Source: a virus
DNA: 35,468 nt
Reading direction: 5' to 3' (one strand)
UHGV virus genome: UHGV-0114740
Shown here: in pieces, positions 22,962 to 30,829 of the stretch
How the letters are laid out: every line of letters starts with the position of its first letter
Numbering within the stretch: the first letter of the stretch is position 1
Notes under the pieces: model-generated
Told to the model about the DNA's origin: nothing
Seen by the model: only the letters and a program-made list of their open reading frames with translations
The model's database searches: none
Translations under genes and position numbers: made by a program

Positions 22962-24007
22962 TGAGCAGAAAAAATAAAAAATTGCGCATGAGTTCACGCA
23001 TTGATCTCGCTGATGCGCTCAGGAAAGAATCGTCGCTCAGTGCATTCACATTTGATGGTCCTTACCGCCTGACCGGGCATGACCTGCTGGACAATATGTA
23101 CTGTGCTGATAACGGTCGGTGGTATGAAACCCCGGTGGACTGGTACGGTCTGGCAAGAGCTGCCCGGCAAACGTCCTGGCATCAGTCTGCGCTTTACTTT
23201 AAGCGCAATGTATTACTCGGTTGCTACATCCCGCACCCGCTGCTTTCCCGGCAGGATTTCTCGGCGCTGGCGCTGGACTGGTTTGTGTTCGGTAACGCAT
23301 TCCTTGAGCTTCGGAGCAATATGCTCGGCGAACCGCTTAAATTACGGCACGCCCTGGCGAAATACATGCGACGCGGAAGCGATCTTGAATCATGGTGGTA
23401 TGTGCAGGATGGTAAGGACGCGTTTCAGTTTCGCCCTGGCAAAGTGTGCCACCTGATGAATCCTGACATTAACCAGGAAATCTACGGCATGCCGGAATAT
23501 CTCGGCGCATTACTCTCGGCCAGCCTGTCTCATTCGGCGGACATGTTCAGAAAACTGTATTACGACAACGGATCCCACGCCGGGTGCATCATCTACATCG
23601 GTGCAGCGCAGGTAAACCGCGAAAGCATGGACTCCCTGAAAGAAACGCTACAGGGTGCACGTGGTGGTGGTGCGTTTAAAAATGTGCTCATTCATGCGCC
23701 CAACGGGGGCAAAGAGGGAGTGCAAATTTTACCGTTCCAGCAGATCACCGCAAAGGATGAGTTCATGAATGTTAAGGCGGCATCCCGTGATGATGTGCTG
23801 GCTGCGCACCGCGTTCCGCCGCAACTGATGGGGGCGATGCCGGGCGAAAAAAGTGCGTTTGGCGATGTGGAGAAGGCTGCGCGGGTTTACGCAATTAACG
23901 AGCTGATGCCTGTCATGGAGGCCATGAAGCACATCAATGACTGGCTTGGCGAAGAGGTGATCCGCTTTAACCCTTACGCACTGTTAGACACCCAGCCCAC
24001 ATCCTGA
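22961..24007 (+). CDS. Q: Portal (capsid vertex) protein Q
   Basis: 348 aa directly after P with ATGA overlap; size and position as P2 gpQ. Confidence 0.85.
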   Translation: MSRKNKKLRMSSRIDLADALRKESSLSAFTFDGPYRLTGHDLLDNMYCADNGRWYETPVDWYGLARAARQTSWHQSALYFKRNVLLGCYIPHPLLSRQDFSALALDWFVFGNAFLELRSNMLGEPLKLRHALAKYMRRGSDLESWWYVQDGKDAFQFRPGKVCHLMNPDINQEIYGMPEYLGALLSASLSHSADMFRKLYYDNGSHAGCIIYIGAAQVNRESMDSLKETLQGARGGGAFKNVLIHAPNGGKEGVQILPFQQITAKDEFMNVKAASRDDVLAAHRVPPQLMGAMPGEKSAFGDVEKAARVYAINELMPVMEAMKHINDWLGEEVIRFNPYALLDTQPTS

Positions 24008-24034
24008 CGCGCTTCGCTTGTCTGCTGCTTCGCC

Positions 24035-24057
24035 GGGGCATAAAAAATTTATGCCCC
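24035..24057. other. Perfect 10-bp-stem hairpin GGGGCATAAA aaa TTTATGCCCC just 3' of Q
   Basis: Seen in sequence 28 nt after the Q stop; no flanking U-tract, so either a weak terminator or a protein-binding palindrome. Confidence 0.4.
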
Positions 24058-24333
24058 GACTCTCCAGCTCCTGTATCAATCAGATAATTTCACGATGCTT
24101 TTCTGCTGATTGCCATCATCGACAGTCAGACTCTTACGCAATCCCACCGCGTTGACTGCATGTTCTCGCCGTCTCAGTGCGATTTTGACGGCCTTACCTA
24201 AATCAAAAGCCCTCACGTCTTTTTCACGCTCAGCGTGAGAAATACAGCCATTCTGTTGTATCTCTGCGACATCGTTCAGGGAATGCTATTTACCCCCTGA
24301 AACGCGGGCTGTTCCCCCGTCACCTGCGCGCAG

Positions 24334-24472
24334 AAAAAACGCGTTTTTTTGTGCACGCACGGATCCTTGACGGATCCAGCCGCCACGGGGGCTGGAAGGG
24401 CAAAAAGTCGTTCAAAAAAATTGTGCAAATTTGTGCACTATTGTGCAGCAGGGCGATGCGCGATTATCGCCC
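24334..24472. repeat. Repeat cluster in the putative cos/packaging region: 16-bp perfect palindrome AAAAAACGCGTTTTTT, four TTGTGCA copies (three phased at 10 bp), palindrome GGGCGAT-n8-ATCGCCC
   Basis: Palindrome at 24334..24349; TTGTGCA at 24349, 24421, 24431, 24441; palindrome at 24451..24472. In P2, cos lies next to Q. The exact cos cleavage site was not identified. Confidence 0.4.
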
Positions 24473-24486
24473 TGGTTTGAGGGGGA

Positions 24487-25077
24487 TCAGGTGTTATTTT
24501 TATCTGTCGTCAGTGGGCTAAACCATCCACAATTTACATCGCAGGACTGATGCGTTCTGTCCTCGTGTTTCTCCTGCCACAATGCTTTTCCGCCAGCCTT
24601 TATGATGGCTCTTTCAACATCCCGCTCGTATCGCAAGGGCTGAAATACGTTATTAATGAAATATTCGCTTATGTCCGGAAGCAATACTGCAAAATTATTG
24701 GTTTGTTGCGCCGTTCGGCTATGCAGCAAAGCGGCGTACTTTAATGCGTCCTGTGCTTTCTGGAATTTAAGTGCATAGTCAGTGGCGATTTTTTCCAGTT
24801 CAGCGATTCGGTTGTCTTTAGTTTCCAGCCAATCAAGTAGCGCCAATACTTCAGGATCCCCGACATCCAACACTGTTACGCGTGATTTTTCATAATGTTC
24901 GTCGGCAAGAGTTCGACCAATTTTGAAATCTCCATCATCACCATAACCGGAGCAGGCATAAACAACCTGTGCTCCAGATATTCGCTGAATTGACATTTCC
25001 TCGCCGCAAATAGGGCATTTCGGTACTGGCACAGGTGAATAACGTTCGCGTAATGCCTGATAGTCAATCTTGCTCAC
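24487..25077 (-). CDS. Hypothetical protein (196 aa) in the tin/old-position cargo locus; possible Zn-ribbon
   Basis: GTG start with strong SD AAGGAGG; N-terminal CPICGEE...YACSGYG, acidic coiled-coil middle, C-terminal CDVNCGW. The N-terminus MSKIDYQALRE faintly recalls Ead/Ea22-like phage proteins; no confident family. Confidence 0.6.
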   Translation of the reverse strand: MSKIDYQALRERYSPVPVPKCPICGEEMSIQRISGAQVVYACSGYGDDGDFKIGRTLADEHYEKSRVTVLDVGDPEVLALLDWLETKDNRIAELEKIATDYALKFQKAQDALKYAALLHSRTAQQTNNFAVLLPDISEYFINNVFQPLRYERDVERAIIKAGGKALWQEKHEDRTHQSCDVNCGWFSPLTTDKNNT

Positions 25078-25109
25078 TGGTTGCCTCCTTTGTGTTGCGC
25101 CAGCTCTTC

Positions 25110-25598
25110 CTACGCCTGCATCATGCGATTGACCTGAACGCGTGTGCGTCGAACGGCAAAATTAAATTGAAACATGAGCCGGAACATTTCTGAGGCTTCC
25201 GTGTGAGCATCATGGAGAGGTGACAGGCGGTACAGTTCTGCCTCCGTAGCTTGTTGAATCAATGACAGATCAAATTGAAGTGCGGGTCTGGTACATTTTG
25301 CACATCTGGCAGCAAGCTCCGGCATCAGTTTCTTAACGAAGGTGTTTTGCACCGCTTTGTTGAGTTGTGTCTGCATCCAAATCGCAAATTTCAGCGAACG
25401 CATAAGTTTGATAGCCTCGGGCAGCGGCAGATAGATCATGCTGGTAGATTTGGGTGGTTGATGAATCATCTTCACGGATACGCGATTTCGCAGCGTTCGG
25501 AAAATCGTGTTCCCAACAACAGCCTCTACGGATACAGGACAGGGAGCCAGACCAGCCCGCAGTGCTTCTTTCATTAGCATGTATTCGTATTTTTTCAT
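25110..25598 (-). CDS. Hypothetical protein (162 aa) in the tin/old-position cargo locus
   Basis: ATG with SD GAGGA; no recognisable motif; co-oriented with and 32 bp upstream of the 196-aa gene. Confidence 0.6.
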   Translation of the reverse strand: MKKYEYMLMKEALRAGLAPCPVSVEAVVGNTIFRTLRNRVSVKMIHQPPKSTSMIYLPLPEAIKLMRSLKFAIWMQTQLNKAVQNTFVKKLMPELAARCAKCTRPALQFDLSLIQQATEAELYRLSPLHDAHTEASEMFRLMFQFNFAVRRTRVQVNRMMQA

Positions 25599-25658
25599 CG
25601 TGTTTTCCTCGTGCGGGGCGACAGTGCACCCCGATAAAATTAAAAGCCGTCAAATTCG

Positions 25659-25970
25659 TCATTCAGGAAATAATGCCCGGATATTCCCTGCCATCTGACT
25701 GGTTATCTGTGCGGTTGGTACTGGCTGTGACACGGGGCGTTCTGTCCTGGTTTGTGTCACCGATAACGCCTCATCGTCAGCCCATGCAGCCAGTCGGTAA
25801 GCCTCTGCCGGATTCATTTTCAGAAGTGCCAGCCCGGCCAAAAAAGCCACGCGTTGGCCGCTTTTGCGGGCTTCTGGTGTAAGGCTGTCCAGCCAGGCAC
25901 ATGCTTCGCCTTCGTTCTTGACGGCGGCGGGCTTCAGATAGAAACTTATCCGTCTGGTTGGTGTCGTCAT
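25659..25970 (-). CDS. parR: ParR/StbB-like partition adaptor protein
   Basis: Start at internal Met (MTTPTRRISFYLKPA...) with SD AAGGAG, 4 nt after the parM stop. RRISFYLKP...LDSLTP..ARKSGQRVAFLAGLALL parallels plasmid R1 ParR (RRTIAFKLNP...LDSIPQGERSRLNRAALTAGLALY). Confidence 0.7.
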   Translation of the reverse strand: MTTPTRRISFYLKPAAVKNEGEACAWLDSLTPEARKSGQRVAFLAGLALLKMNPAEAYRLAAWADDEALSVTQTRTERPVSQPVPTAQITSQMAGNIRALFPE

Positions 25971-25974
25971 TGGT

Positions 25975-26934
25975 TTACTCCTTGTCCATTGCGTACAGCC
26001 CATTAACCAGAGCAAACTGTGGCACCCCGTCCGCGATGAAAGTCGCATTAACTCCGCAGGCTTCGCGGATAGCGGGTGCCACAATCTCCGCCCCTCCACC
26101 GACAACCATCACCCGCCCGTAACCCGAAAAACCCGCCAGCGCGCGGATCACGCGTTGTTTCAGTGTTTCTTCCTTTTCACGAATAACCGCCATCAGGCTG
26201 TCGTAATGCGCGTCATTGTGGATGTGCTGGCGCAGCCAGGCTTCATCATGGCGATGTTCGATAATGGTATTGGCGATGTGGTGACTGGTACGCATACCGT
26301 TAGTGGCCATCACCGACAGTACGGCATCGGCCATCAGGGAAACGCCTACGTGTGGATCGCAAAACACCTGGCTGATACCTGCCAGTTGTCCCTGAACCTT
26401 TGCCACATCCAGCGTGGTTCCGCCTAAATCCACAATCAGCAGGGATTCAAACGGACTCATGTCAGCCAGTGCTTTAAAGCCAGCCGGAATGGATTCAGGC
26501 ATAACCCGTACGTTACGGATAGTGAATGCTTCGCCGTTCTGGTACTCCACCGGGCGCATGACGTTCGCTTTTTTGCGGTTGATGTTGGCCATGTCCGGCT
26601 GTGCGTTTGTGTCGAAATACTCGCTCAGTGGTAGGGTGACAACCACATCCACTTCCTGTGGTGTGATGCCTGATTTGACCAGTGCGTGATGAATGGCAAC
26701 GACATTCACATCGCTGTACTGGTACTGCGTGTCGGTCGTCTGGACAAAGCGATCGCTGACCGGATCAAAGCCATAGCGCACGCCATCAAGCATGTAGTTC
26801 GCGGGCTGCGTGCCACCGAACGGCGCAGACCATTCCGACTTGAAGCTGTTCGGGCTGATGGCGTTGCGGCGTTCGCCGTTCTCAGTCCATGCCAGCTTGA
26901 TGTTGGTGGAGCCGTCGTCGATACAAATTTTCAT
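25975..26934 (-). CDS. parM: ParM/StbA-like actin-family partition ATPase
   Basis: MKICIDDGSTNIKLAW, ISPNSFKSEW, YSDVNVVAIHHAL, VMPESIPAG, LLIVDLGGTTLD, VMVVGGGAE, LVNGLY all parallel plasmid R1 ParM blocks. Confidence 0.85.
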   Translation of the reverse strand: MKICIDDGSTNIKLAWTENGERRNAISPNSFKSEWSAPFGGTQPANYMLDGVRYGFDPVSDRFVQTTDTQYQYSDVNVVAIHHALVKSGITPQEVDVVVTLPLSEYFDTNAQPDMANINRKKANVMRPVEYQNGEAFTIRNVRVMPESIPAGFKALADMSPFESLLIVDLGGTTLDVAKVQGQLAGISQVFCDPHVGVSLMADAVLSVMATNGMRTSHHIANTIIEHRHDEAWLRQHIHNDAHYDSLMAVIREKEETLKQRVIRALAGFSGYGRVMVVGGGAEIVAPAIREACGVNATFIADGVPQFALVNGLYAMDKE

Positions 26935-26965
26935 GTCGCTTTTCCTTATGTTGATTAATTAATCG

Positions 26966-27074
26966 TTTACGGGATTCTGAAATCCCGCTTTTGCCTGTTT
27001 TGTGCGCACTTCATGTTTTATGGCGCGTTTTTTGCTCATTTACGGGATTTGTGAATCCCGTTTCTGTCTGTTTT
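26966..27074. repeat. Two ~36-bp direct repeats, each with a 7-bp-stem palindrome (CGGGATT n4 AATCCCG), upstream of parM and abutting the A stop codon; parC-like centromere or operator candidate
   Basis: R1 26966..27001 TTTACGGGATTCTGAAATCCCGCTTTTGCCTGTTTT; R2 27039..27074 TTTACGGGATTTGTGAATCCCGTTTCTGTCTGTTTT; 73 bp apart. Confidence 0.5.
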
Positions 27075-29832
27075 TGTTTCCACTGGTCAGTCCACCCCGC
27101 AGCAGGTCTGCTTTGCGGCGGGCGCGTTCAGTGGTTTCACTGATTCTCTGTTCGTGCTCTGCGTCGCGGATGGCGCGCAGCATGTCAGAAAGCACGGTAA
27201 CGGGTGTTTTCATGGTGTTCTGGTCCTGCTGAAGTGTGAATGCCAGGCGTGCGGCGGCTTCGGGGTCTGATGCCCCCAGCTGTTCCAGGTAGCTGACGAC
27301 CGGGTTATGGCGGATCTCCGTGCTGCTTACGCCGTGGTTACGGCTCAGGCGCTGCCAGAGCTGCGTGATTCGGCTGTCCGGGCGGGTATCCGGTTTGCGT
27401 ACAATTTCAAATCCCTGCGGTGCAATGATGCTGCCGTCAACGTACAGACTGCCGCCCCGTAACAGGTGCTGCATCTGCTGTTCACCAATATGCAGGCCGA
27501 GAGATTCAGCAGACTCCCGCCATTCTTTAGCGAGTAACTCGTGGTTATCAGGCAAAGGCTGTGGCTGTTTGCGGCTCTGTGTCCAGTTCTGCATTTCATC
27601 GCTGCTGTTTTTTGCCTGTTTGTCACGAAGCGAACACATCAGCGCCCGGCGTTCGTGCCGTTTCAGTGAATGCATCCATTCGTTCACTTCAACGCCGTCA
27701 GGGAGCTGCGGCCACGGTGCTGGCCGTTCTTCCGGCTGTTCTGTCCCGTTGTTGTCTGTTTCCTGTACACGGGGACAGTTATTGCCACGAGTCCAAGGGG
27801 CGGCAGGGCCGCCCTGAAGGTCAAAACCATTTTCGCTGGCGCTGTCTTTCGCTTCCGGTTTGCGTCTTACCAGCTTCCAGTTATCCGGATGCGTGCACAC
27901 ACGGGAGGATTCCCCGATGAGTGGTGACCAGATCCCGTAAATCTGTACGCTCTGTTCGCCGTAATCGTTCAGCTCATCGGCGAGGTCGTAGGCGGTGCGA
28001 ATCAGGTAGTCTTTGCGTGGAACAAGTACGCCGCCCTGTTTCTCTATGTAGGTGGCAAAACATCCGGCATCAGCGGCGGCAAGAACCGCATCCATTGCGT
28101 CATCCTTCAGCCGTTGCGGGCCTTCCGGGTTGCGTGCCATCTGGCTGGCAAGGCGGCGCAGTTCACGCCATACCTGGCGGGAGGGGATGCCAAAGAACTG
28201 GAACTGGCGGACCCGGTGAAGGCGCGCCCAGCCGATGGCGCGTTCCACGCTCTCGGCCATTGATTTTCCGGTTTCGTGGTCAACGCGTGGTTTGCCCGTT
28301 TTCGGGTCGATGCCATCCACGGCGCGGCTGTCCAGGTTTTTTCCGATGTAGGTCGCGATATAGCTGGTTGGTGTGCCTTTTGAGCCGTCTACGTACTCCG
28401 CCTTAAAGCGCGGAGTAATATCATCGCCCAGCTCGTGACGATCTTCCTGAATGGCAATATCGCGGGCGTGGGACACAATGGTGTCGATTTCTTCCGGATG
28501 GGCAAAGACCATCATATGCCAGTGCACGGTGCCGTCATGGTGAGGCTCCACCGTGCGGATGCCATACCAGCGCAGGCCGTCGCGGTTCAGTTTCTTGCGG
28601 ACCGCCGCAAAAAACGTGTTAACCAGGTAATCGCTGGAGTCGCGCATGGTGGCCCCGTTCCATTTGGGATTCGGATGACCGTTCTCTGTTGTGGCGTGGT
28701 ATTTTGACGGGCAGGTGACAGTCAGAAACACCGCTTTGTCGCCACGGGCTTCGGCCAGAAGTTCCAGCCCCTTCATGGTGGCCATCATTTCTGCCTTACG
28801 GTGAACCGGGTTACTTACTCCCGCGTAATACACTGTCTCGAGATCAATCGTGAACCCATCTTCGTTTTCCAGCATGAAACTTTTCAGGAAATCGCGTGTT
28901 TTCTCGCGCTGTGCGCGAAACTCGCTTAACGCGTCCTGGCTCAGATAGGGCGATGTCTTTCTGGAAACCAGACAGGCGGCGCGGAGTTGTTCTTCTCTCC
29001 ACTCGCAACGTAACAGCCACAGTTTGCGTTTCCACCATTCCGCACAGGTCAGGCGTAGGATTGCGCCCGGCAGCAGTTCCGTGTCCGGTTCGTTCCTCCG
29101 GTCTTTGTCTGTTGTCAGTGCGTCATAATGTGGAGGCATGGCGTGCAGGTGTAACGCCATGCGGGCCAGCATCTGATACGCCTTCAGGGTTACATCCATG
29201 GTCAGCTCGCCATCGGTCGCGCCAAAGCCATTGCAGAGTTTTTCGAAGGTGCTGCTGAACATCGCCGCCGTCATGGTGGCCAGCGTCTGTATCTGGTGCT
29301 TGTTGAGCTGCGGCAGGTAAAGCAAATCGTCCAGGCGTTCGCGTCCGGCAAGGGCGCGATAACCCCGTGTCAGCCAGCGGTGGTCGGTGCGGTCCAGACG
29401 TTCGAATATTTTGCGCAGGGTTCCGCGCGCGTAGCGTTCAGCCTGCCAGCTCTTTTTGCCTTTCTGGCGATCGGCTTCCTGTTTTTTGCGCAGGAAGGAG
29501 AGGTGGCGAATAAGCGGATCGCGCAGATAGGACGGCAGCAGGCGCAGCGAGGCCATGGCTTCATCCACCGCGCCGCGTGCCTGTTTTCTGGCGTCTCCTG
29601 CCAGTGTGATGGTTTTGTCCTGTTTTTCCTGTGCGTCCAGGCTTTTATTAATCAGGTTGCCCAGCGGCGTGGCGGAGAACGCCGCATCAGCCATTTCCTG
29701 GCGGCGCTCGTTCTCTGCCCGGTAAGCATCCAGCCAGGAGGAAAGCGCGGATTCAGGAGCGGGGATCCCCGTTCCTTCACGCCCCACTGCGTGGCGCGGT
29801 TGTTGCCAGTCCCTGATGTACTCTGCCGTCAT
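27040..29832 (-). CDS. A: Replication initiation protein A (rolling-circle HUH endonuclease)
   Basis: 930 aa; contains HWHMMVF (HUH-like) and SYIATYIGK (paired catalytic Tyr) as in P2 gpA; appears longer than I remember P2 A to be. Confidence 0.85.
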   Translation of the reverse strand: MTAEYIRDWQQPRHAVGREGTGIPAPESALSSWLDAYRAENERRQEMADAAFSATPLGNLINKSLDAQEKQDKTITLAGDARKQARGAVDEAMASLRLLPSYLRDPLIRHLSFLRKKQEADRQKGKKSWQAERYARGTLRKIFERLDRTDHRWLTRGYRALAGRERLDDLLYLPQLNKHQIQTLATMTAAMFSSTFEKLCNGFGATDGELTMDVTLKAYQMLARMALHLHAMPPHYDALTTDKDRRNEPDTELLPGAILRLTCAEWWKRKLWLLRCEWREEQLRAACLVSRKTSPYLSQDALSEFRAQREKTRDFLKSFMLENEDGFTIDLETVYYAGVSNPVHRKAEMMATMKGLELLAEARGDKAVFLTVTCPSKYHATTENGHPNPKWNGATMRDSSDYLVNTFFAAVRKKLNRDGLRWYGIRTVEPHHDGTVHWHMMVFAHPEEIDTIVSHARDIAIQEDRHELGDDITPRFKAEYVDGSKGTPTSYIATYIGKNLDSRAVDGIDPKTGKPRVDHETGKSMAESVERAIGWARLHRVRQFQFFGIPSRQVWRELRRLASQMARNPEGPQRLKDDAMDAVLAAADAGCFATYIEKQGGVLVPRKDYLIRTAYDLADELNDYGEQSVQIYGIWSPLIGESSRVCTHPDNWKLVRRKPEAKDSASENGFDLQGGPAAPWTRGNNCPRVQETDNNGTEQPEERPAPWPQLPDGVEVNEWMHSLKRHERRALMCSLRDKQAKNSSDEMQNWTQSRKQPQPLPDNHELLAKEWRESAESLGLHIGEQQMQHLLRGGSLYVDGSIIAPQGFEIVRKPDTRPDSRITQLWQRLSRNHGVSSTEIRHNPVVSYLEQLGASDPEAAARLAFTLQQDQNTMKTPVTVLSDMLRAIRDAEHEQRISETTERARRKADLLRGGLTSGNKNRQKRDSQIP

Positions 29833-30507: not shown

Positions 30508-30829
30508 GGTGTGGCCTCTTTGCTCGGTGATAGAAATAACTCACCATCCAGAGTTGAGAATCTCGGGGTGGCGAGACGTACAGGGTTCTCAACACCGGAG
30601 AGCAAAGAATCCGGCCCGACCGAAGTCGGCCCCGTACGCCCCGCCATAATTCTGACGCGAAAAAGACGTGGCAATACAGTACGCACAAAAAAACCGCTTG
30701 CGCGGTTATGCGCTTTGCTCTGTATCGGGTTGAGAATCCCGGCACCCGTTTTATGAGGTGCAGCGGAAATGTAACCTGACCGATTGAGGCATGGCAAGCG
30801 GTTTTTTTGTGTGTGCATGTTCTGGTTTC

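Follow-up and report, generated by a model that had tools for sequence, protein, structure and literature searches.

The virus genome UHGV-0114740, analysed here over its full length of 35,468 nucleotides (hereafter the window), carries between positions 24,487 and 25,598 two small adjacent genes, orf162 and orf196, at the tin/old position of P2-like phages, next to cos. We conclude, with a probability of roughly one half, that the two are independently shuffled accessory modules in the style of the 'ea' genes of lambdoid phages, lodged in the gpA-gpQ hotspot, and not a dedicated two-gene defence system. Confidence in any specific phenotype is much lower than in this overall classification. 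An earlier interpretation made from the letters of the window (hereafter the sequence-only reading) had taken the pair for a candidate novel module of defence or exclusion. The premise of the hotspot has held, but the proposal as worded has not: one gene is a member of a known family, each of the two can occur without the other, and neither matches a PADLOC model. The pair is ordinary mosaic accessory cargo and not demonstrably a new defence system.

By megablast, the window is a P88-like (Xuanwuvirus, Peduoviridae) prophage of the P2 family from Escherichia coli. Both genes lie on the minus strand where they had first been predicted: orf162 (25110..25598) opens with ATG and encodes 162 residues, orf196 (24487..25077) opens with GTG and encodes 196, a strong Shine-Dalgarno sequence precedes each (GAGGAA at 25605-25610 and AAGGAGG at 25084-25090, respectively), and 32 bp separate them. 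They share their direction with the parMR partition cassette, as had been noted before, and also with the gpA-like gene. The variability of the site was assessed in 80 IMG/VR loci fetched via ParM (99% identical), in 57 of which the interval from parR to the portal gene could be delimited. These 57 loci hold 30 gene arrangements and 50 distinct sequences, 1.0-4.2 kb in length; the slot is the hypervariable gpA-gpQ (tin/old-position) hotspot of the P2 family, next to cos, as the sequence-only reading had supposed, and its content varies among relatives whose ParM is nearly invariant. The hotspot was described by Rousset et al. (2022; PMC9122126), according to whom a partition system is present there in about one quarter of P2-like phages; old/tin proved defensive, as did three of the eight further systems that were cloned. 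The present arrangement is not new, being already catalogued in their Table S5 with proteins exactly those of locus L001; their table of evaluated systems has no Ea22 entry.

The cos-proximal slot of P88-like phages holds two kinds of cargo. The first consists of bona fide defence or toxin-antitoxin systems. Cargo of relatives in this slot matches the PADLOC models AbiLi/AbiLii, IetA, RmrA-like, PDC-M04A and PDC-M11A/B: AbiL-like genes are found in L016, L018 and L045, PDC-M11A/B in L087, PDC-M04A in L046, IetAS-like genes in L067, L078 and L093 (the 734-aa gene adjoining IetA is taken as the subtilase partner IetS and was not itself scanned), and RmrA-like together with PIN-like genes in L063 and L074. 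A toxin of the YafO family occupies the slot in L003. AbiL and PDC-M04A are encoded on the opposite strand. The second kind consists of forward arrays of small overlapping genes of early type, encoding, e.g., a ClpX-zinc-finger protein, SSB and DUF7446, with one weak Mom-like match below the Pfam cut-off. When orf162 and orf196 were compared with PADLOC-DB v2, which includes Old and Tin, each matched zero families at E-values up to 1, in the same search that detects AbiL, IetA, RmrA, PDC-M04A and PDC-M11 in the cargo of relatives. The earlier remark that neither gene is like Tin or Old is thereby borne out.

The classification depends first on orf196, which the profile comparisons identify as a member of the known but poorly understood Ead/Ea22-like family. 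Its residues 2-138 match Pfam PF13935 (Ead_Ea22) with 111.2 bits (E 7.9e-32; the gathering cut-off is 27 bits), PHROG 368 is matched at E 3e-30, and in RefSeq it is called 'ead/Ea22-like family protein'. Exactly this protein is recorded on 49 contigs, its cluster at 90% identity has 486 members, and among 524 homologues PF13935 is present in all of the 120 listed. The statement that the 196-aa protein resembles no recognised family is thus withdrawn, and 'unknown' remains apt for the first gene, which has neither a family nor a fold match.

The protein is composed of modules. The N-module (residues 1-85; 24823..25077, minus strand) begins with MSKIDYQALRE, continues with C21-x2-C24 and C42 in a hairpin resembling a zinc ribbon, and lies in the region matched by the Pfam model; by itself it matches PF13935 at E 6e-21, and AlphaFold 2 (AF2) models it as a helix followed by three beta-strands. 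The central helix (residues 75-126; 24700..24855, minus strand), which includes RIAELEKIATDYALKFQKAQDALKYA and is predicted to form a coiled coil, is the best-confidence segment of the AF2 model and the segment most widely common to homologues in the alignment. The C-module (residues 127-170) is characterised by FAVxLPDxxEYFINxVFQPLRYERDVERAIIKAGGK and is followed by a non-conserved tail (residues 171-196) that carries CDVNCGW and ends in DKNNT; the two together occupy 24490..24699 on the minus strand. In the alignment, N- and C-modules recombine around the common helix, with unrelated sequence in each place in other homologues, and the helix is a likely recombination joint. Where we examined its context, the C-module was seen in P88-like prophages; it has no match in Pfam or PDB and no similarity to the C-terminal domain of lambda Ea22. 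Among phage records, tblastn matches the N-module in ES18, ST64B, D6 and P88_4B11 relatives only, and did not show it to be the same as the N-module of the Phi24B or 933W Ea22. Several derivative alleles were observed as well. In P0003 (147 aa) a deletion fuses the first ~120 residues of the upstream gene to an Ead tail; in P0025 and P0027 (204 and 199 aa) stop-codon read-through extends the Ead protein into the cos side; and P0147 (127 aa, on 128 contigs) is a widespread Ead copy whose C-module has been lost, at a site with a membrane-protein gene on the opposite strand.

A zinc-binding fold had been suggested for orf196 from the motifs CPICGEE, YACSGYG and CDVNCGW. All three are present in the translation, but only the part of the suggestion that concerns the N-module may still hold. 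There, C21, C24 and C42 are conserved among homologues with this module, with no fourth cysteine, and the zinc ribbons of Pfam give weak, sub-threshold matches (E 0.004-0.1); the N-module might possibly bind zinc. The C-terminal CDVNCGW is rejected as a metal site because its cysteines vary or the tail is absent: the representative of the 486-member cluster has CDVNRGW, Escherichia albertii has SDVNSGW, and other homologues of full functional length miss the tail altogether.

The first gene is a truncated allele of a longer one. Codon 163 is TAG in the window, but each of the three close relatives used for comparison (L001-L003) has CAG there. In these the gene encodes 174 residues (orf174) and its TGA overlaps the GTG of orf196 as GTGA; the nearest genomes (98% identity over 2.9 kb) have a hypothetical protein annotated at 174 aa, with a 4-nt overlap between its stop and the Ead start. 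The frame of the relatives runs on as QEELTQHKGGNQ up to its stop and ends in GTGA; in the window (25074-25112, minus strand) the amber codon removes 12 residues and, with them, the ancestral stop/start overlap with the Ead gene. What used to be the last 11 codons and the TGA of orf174 (25074..25109, minus strand) is now untranslated; it forms a conserved module boundary that includes the Shine-Dalgarno AAGGAGG of orf196 as well as the ancestral GTGA. The spacer of 32 bp had been measured correctly, but it is not the original layout: because codon 163 has changed from CAG to TAG, and because the relatives have 174 residues and the GTGA overlap, the comparison identifies it as the product of a recent nonsense mutation, one that would uncouple translation of the two genes. 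RefSeq has the identical 162-aa allele, WP_261631472.1, from six contigs.

The truncated gene belongs to an orphan family. The product of orf174 is soluble and strongly basic (pI 10, +12; orf162 has a pI of ~10), and that of orf196 is acidic (pI 5.3). AF2 models orf162 as mostly helical (pLDDT 71), with confidence falling over the C-terminal residues of orf174 that the amber removes. With dN/dS values of 0.2-0.38 among homologues down to 44% identity, orf174 is a real gene under purifying selection. Searches with orf162 returned nothing usable in Pfam, PHROG, PADLOC or NCBIfam and no match in 50,697 phage records; those with orf174 found no match in PDB, by sequence or by profile, and none below E 0.2 in the Foldseek comparison with BFVD. 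An exhaustive phmmer search over 1.84 billion representatives yielded three real orf174 clusters; Pfam shows two further marginal matches, to a cadherin and to a 525-aa protein, to be spurious. A profile search yielded 13 clusters at 90% identity, in which every source that has a name is Escherichia or Shigella, and 30 of 5426 complete E. coli genomes have the gene. By these searches, orf174 is a narrow orphan family of Escherichia/Shigella P2-like prophages. For orf196, PDB searches by sequence and profile gave coiled-coil noise only, the AF2 model is poor outside the long helix (pLDDT 59), and Foldseek run on that model gave no match below E 0.2. The profile and structure searches once proposed as a check on the pair have therefore resolved one half of it, through PF13935, while PADLOC returned nothing, the searches with orf174 returned nothing, and Foldseek gave nothing below E 0.2 for either protein.

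The second argument for the classification is that the two genes do not form a fixed two-gene system. In the unbiased sample of 57 loci, orf196 alone is the commonest cargo of the slot (10 of the 57), the two genes occur together in three loci, and another three have orf174 without this Ead gene. The isolated phage P88_4B11 has no gene other than orf196 between parR and cos. All orf174 lineages that were examined (44-100% identity) have the gene directly 5' of an Ead/Ea22 start, and what follows it varies: full-length Ead genes with three different N-modules, or Ead remnants (of 28 aa, of 38 aa, and one without a start codon), and in one lineage a DUF7446 gene. Stop and start overlap as GTGA or TAATG in five of these lineages. 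The dependence is thus asymmetric: orf196 is self-sufficient, and orf174 is placed before an Ead start in the lineages examined. orf174 appears to be an optional module inserted 5' of Ead genes. A functional partnership of the two proteins, e.g., a complex of a basic and an acidic partner, is conceivable, but the data do not demand it, since orf174 stays intact next to mere remnants of Ead genes.

Third, the junction between the genes has the features of a module boundary. The common junction after orf174 is AAAGGAGGCAACCAGTGAGCAA, which carries the ribosome-binding site of the downstream gene. The 48-nt stretch at 25045-25092 runs from the end of one gene through a Shine-Dalgarno sequence into the following gene, of which it covers the first 11 codons. 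It is 93.8% identical to records of Shiga toxin (Stx) phages (Oslovirus and others), which have it between two tandem Ead/Ea22 genes. Other forward cargo genes end in ATCAAAGGAGAGTGA, which encodes IKGE and the stop, with AAAGGAG just before the stop codon. In the literature, the significance of the K/RGE motif at the C-terminus of Ea22 proteins is described as unknown. When these junctions (25045-25092 of the window, loci L012, L025, L048, L052, L066 and L076, and L095:2501-2548) are compared, that ending and the KGGNQ end of orf174 are seen to be the Shine-Dalgarno AAAGGAG of the next gene inside a conserved boundary. The mosaic breakpoints suggest that the junction is a recombination boundary, as long noted in lambdoid early accessory regions. 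It is like the lambdoid gene-boundary ('linker') sequences in that some 48 nt are conserved, with 94% identity to the tandem Ead genes of Stx phages, and in that orf174 and other cargo end in it; it is unlike them in that it works here in a P2-family backbone. In several orf174 lineages (50-99% identity; L002, L062 and L004-L007), the gene directly before orf174 encodes 110 residues with a ClpX-type C4 zinc finger, which suggests an older three-gene array of zf-ClpX, orf174 and Ead; the first of these genes would since have been lost from the window.

The expression of the pair is probably by read-through from the unit of A and parMR. A scan for sigma-70-like sites found none on either strand in 23900-27200, and a laxer one, accepting 8 of 12 consensus matches, found none upstream of orf162, orf196 or parM; these scans are weak as negatives, as they also missed the expected par promoter. 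A dedicated promoter for the pair was accordingly dropped from consideration, within the limits of the scan. No convincing terminator was found on the minus strand between gpA and orf196, and a terminator-like hairpin (GTGCACAAATTTGCAC, then AATTTTTTTG, with a T-run; 24413..24438, minus strand) stands ~50 nt downstream of the orf196 stop, where it likely ends the transcription unit before cos. Because the pair has no promoter of its own in these scans, no terminator separates it from gpA and a hairpin follows it, read-through fits, and the earlier suggestion of a single unit from A to orf196 is plausible. The 60-nt region between parR and orf162 (25599..25658, minus strand) holds the GAGGAA of orf162 and a GC-rich hairpin without T-run, CGGGG-N10-CCCCG (25620-25640), which may be an element of RNA processing or stability rather than a terminator. 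Two other possibilities were discarded: a Tum-like antirepressor under LexA control, as in phage 186, given that no LexA box lies near the genes and that orf162 has no match in phage records; and an RNA gene, as Rfam has no match in the orf162-orf196 interval.

What the genes might do can be considered by analogy with Ea22 itself. In lambdoid phages, Ea22 is the product of an early pL gene, with a coiled coil between a short N-terminal region and a variable C-terminal domain; it is tetrameric, and deletion of ea22 in lambda and Phi24B favours lytic growth (PMC10834534, PMC7093339). The C-terminal domains differ between family members according to the literature, and the absence of a lambda-type domain leaves the membership of orf196 intact. 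orf196 shares with Ea22 the PF13935 match well above the cut-off, the MSxIxYQALRE start, the succession of N-module, long helix and variable C-terminal domain, and the position in an array of small genes that overlap one another and run in the direction of the early genes. The N-terminal region of the Stx-phage Ea22 (Dydecka et al.) resembles the helix and three beta-strands modelled for orf196. The differences are that orf196 lies between parR and cos and not in the lambdoid exo-xis region, that its C-module is unrelated to the solved C-terminal domain of lambda Ea22, and that it lacks the K/RGE end; a tetramer and a pro-lysogenic effect are carried over to it by analogy. Compared with the P2 cargo tin and old, the pair occupies the same slot next to cos, with the same hypervariability, but it has no relation in sequence or domains to Tin, Old or the systems validated by Rousset et al., and it differs from AbiL and PDC-M04A in being co-oriented with the early and par genes, with no evident promoter of its own.

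Put together, the classification as shuffled 'ea' modules would imply the following mechanism: 1) transcription of the A/parMR unit would read through both genes and stop at the hairpin ahead of cos; 2) the conserved AAAGGAGnnAnCCAGTGA boundary would provide the ribosome-binding site of the downstream gene and translational coupling; 3) orf196 would oligomerise through its coiled-coil helix, as do the lambda and Phi24B Ea22 proteins; 4) soon after infection or induction, its terminal modules would bind a factor of the host or of the phage; 5) this binding would bias development towards lysogeny and/or host survival; and 6) orf174 would be an optional add-on that might act with the acidic Ead protein or modify it. 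Several points weigh against this. The activity of neither protein is assigned by experiment or by structural match, so far as the comparisons made here extend. The lambda and Phi24B Ea22 proteins, from which the pro-lysogenic phenotype comes, share only their first ~11 residues with orf196 in pairwise comparison (BLASTP with lambda Ea22, E = 7.4, aligns only these). orf196 has no K/RGE ending and resides in a genome of P2 type, not a lambdoid one. With an AF2 model that is poor (pLDDT 59), its zinc binding and oligomeric state are putative. The near-universal adjacency of orf174 and Ead could mean functional coupling and not a scar of recombination. Finally, the locus is a proven reservoir of defence (PMC9122126) and the cassette is AT-richer, and an exclusion role expressed from the prophage is possible.

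This last point is the core of the explanation that the sequence-only reading had favoured, i.e., that the pair is a novel anti-phage defence or superinfection-exclusion module encoded by the prophage and expressed from the lysogen like P2 tin and old. The slot itself speaks for it, given that old/tin and three of eight further cloned systems proved protective (PMC9122126) and that relatives carry AbiL, IetA(S), RmrA-like, PDC-M04A and PDC-M11 genes there, as do the lower G+C of the cassette relative to the backbone and the rarity and fast turnover of orf174 (the 30 of 5426 genomes mentioned above). Yet neither protein matches PADLOC and no enzymatic or effector domain is recognised; AbiL and PDC-M04A are on the opposite strand, whereas orf174 and orf196 belong to forward arrays of 'ea' type; no promoter-like site of their own turned up in the weak scan; the two genes are not an obligate pair; and the sole tested phenotype of an Ead/Ea22 protein is developmental (pro-lysogenic), not exclusion. 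We consider this explanation unlikely. Another one is a cassette of anti-defence or host takeover whose early genes would neutralise an immune or stress pathway of the host while the P88-like phage infects or is induced, with swappable Ead modules tracking host targets. The pair is co-oriented with the early replication operon and no promoter of its own was found; extensive swapping of both termini around a constant, oligomerising helix is what binders that track a target would be expected to show; orf196 is acidic like many inhibitor proteins; and the neighbouring forward cargo (the ClpX-zinc-finger protein, SSB and the sub-cut-off Mom-like match) is typical of host manipulation. All this is circumstantial, there is neither homology to known anti-defence proteins nor a fold match, and the explanation overlaps the 'ea'-module classification in all but its target; on its own, we give it a low probability.

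Less likely are two explanations that bear on the state of the pair and on its unity. According to one, the cargo is decaying in this prophage, the amber marks the onset of pseudogenisation, and the cassette is inert here. This would fit the premature TAG in orf162 and the many truncated or fused derivatives in the slot (the 127-aa Ead on 128 contigs, the fusion of orf174 to an Ead tail in P0003, the read-through variants). It is hard to reconcile with the loss of only 12 C-terminal residues, largely encoded by the boundary and modelled with falling confidence, with an intact orf196 whose identical protein is on 49 contigs, and with the purifying selection on the orf174 family, and we regard it as doubtful. 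According to the other, orf174 and Ead form a two-component module in which a basic effector or nucleic-acid binder would be controlled by an oligomeric Ea22 scaffold with exchangeable modules, giving exclusion by the lysogen of competing elements, or protection of the induced phage from them; we hold this to be a quite improbable conjecture. A type II toxin-antitoxin or addiction pair, in which basic orf174 and acidic orf196 would be coupled and stabilise the prophage or a plasmid form alongside parMR, is suggested by the opposite charges, the GTGA overlap in relatives, the adjoining partition cassette and the YafO-type system in the same slot, but it is largely refuted by the co-occurrence data (the 57 loci, P88_4B11 and the orf174 lineages), with orf196 on its own in most loci that have it and orf174 intact beside Ead remnants of 28-38 aa or a DUF7446 gene, and, with no match to toxin or antitoxin families (Pfam, PHROG, PADLOC, NCBIfam) and an amber that uncouples the pair in the window, an allele present on six contigs, it is very improbable.

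The surroundings of the pair are those of a P2-family prophage with a partition system. Directly upstream of orf162 lies parR/StbB (25659-25970, minus strand; Pfam Plasmid_stab_B, E 4e-24), preceded by parM (25975-26934, minus strand; StbA_N, E 1e-82, and ParM_N, E 1e-68), both annotated as such in RefSeq and forming an actin-type partition cassette. Further upstream is the gene of the gpA-type replication endonuclease (930 aa; 27040..29832, minus strand), co-oriented with parM, parR, orf162 and orf196. On the other side, past a cos region of ~480 bp, the portal and large terminase genes are on the other strand. The G+C content is 44-49% in the cassette and 52-60% in its flanks. Just upstream of parM, an 18-bp palindrome (CGGGATTnnnnAATCCCG) is present in two copies (27043-27060, abutting the gpA stop codon, and 26970-26987) with ~55 bp between them; they look like ParR operator (parC) sites, and no consensus sigma-70 promoter was found between them. 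In the early/immunity region, Rfam identifies a C4 antisense RNA (30564-30651, minus strand; 78.5 bits) adjoined by the Hfq-binding small RNA isrK (30687-30761, minus strand; 63.1 bits), which suggests an antisense-RNA immunity element in the style of P1/P7 in this P2-family prophage.

Our analysis corrects misreadings of the raw sequence, i.e., the 'unknown' family of orf196, its C-terminal zinc site and the 32-bp spacer. Were the two-component conjecture true, the Ead/Ea22 family would be a modular class of sensors or adaptors in conflicts between phages, and not a regulator of lysis and lysogeny. If the classification given here is right, the locus adds to the documented cases in which lambdoid 'ea'-type mosaic modules have colonised the defence hotspot of P2-family prophages, and little else changes. 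The position in the hotspot is by itself a weak predictor of defence, because the slot holds both defence or toxin-antitoxin systems and arrays of early-type genes.

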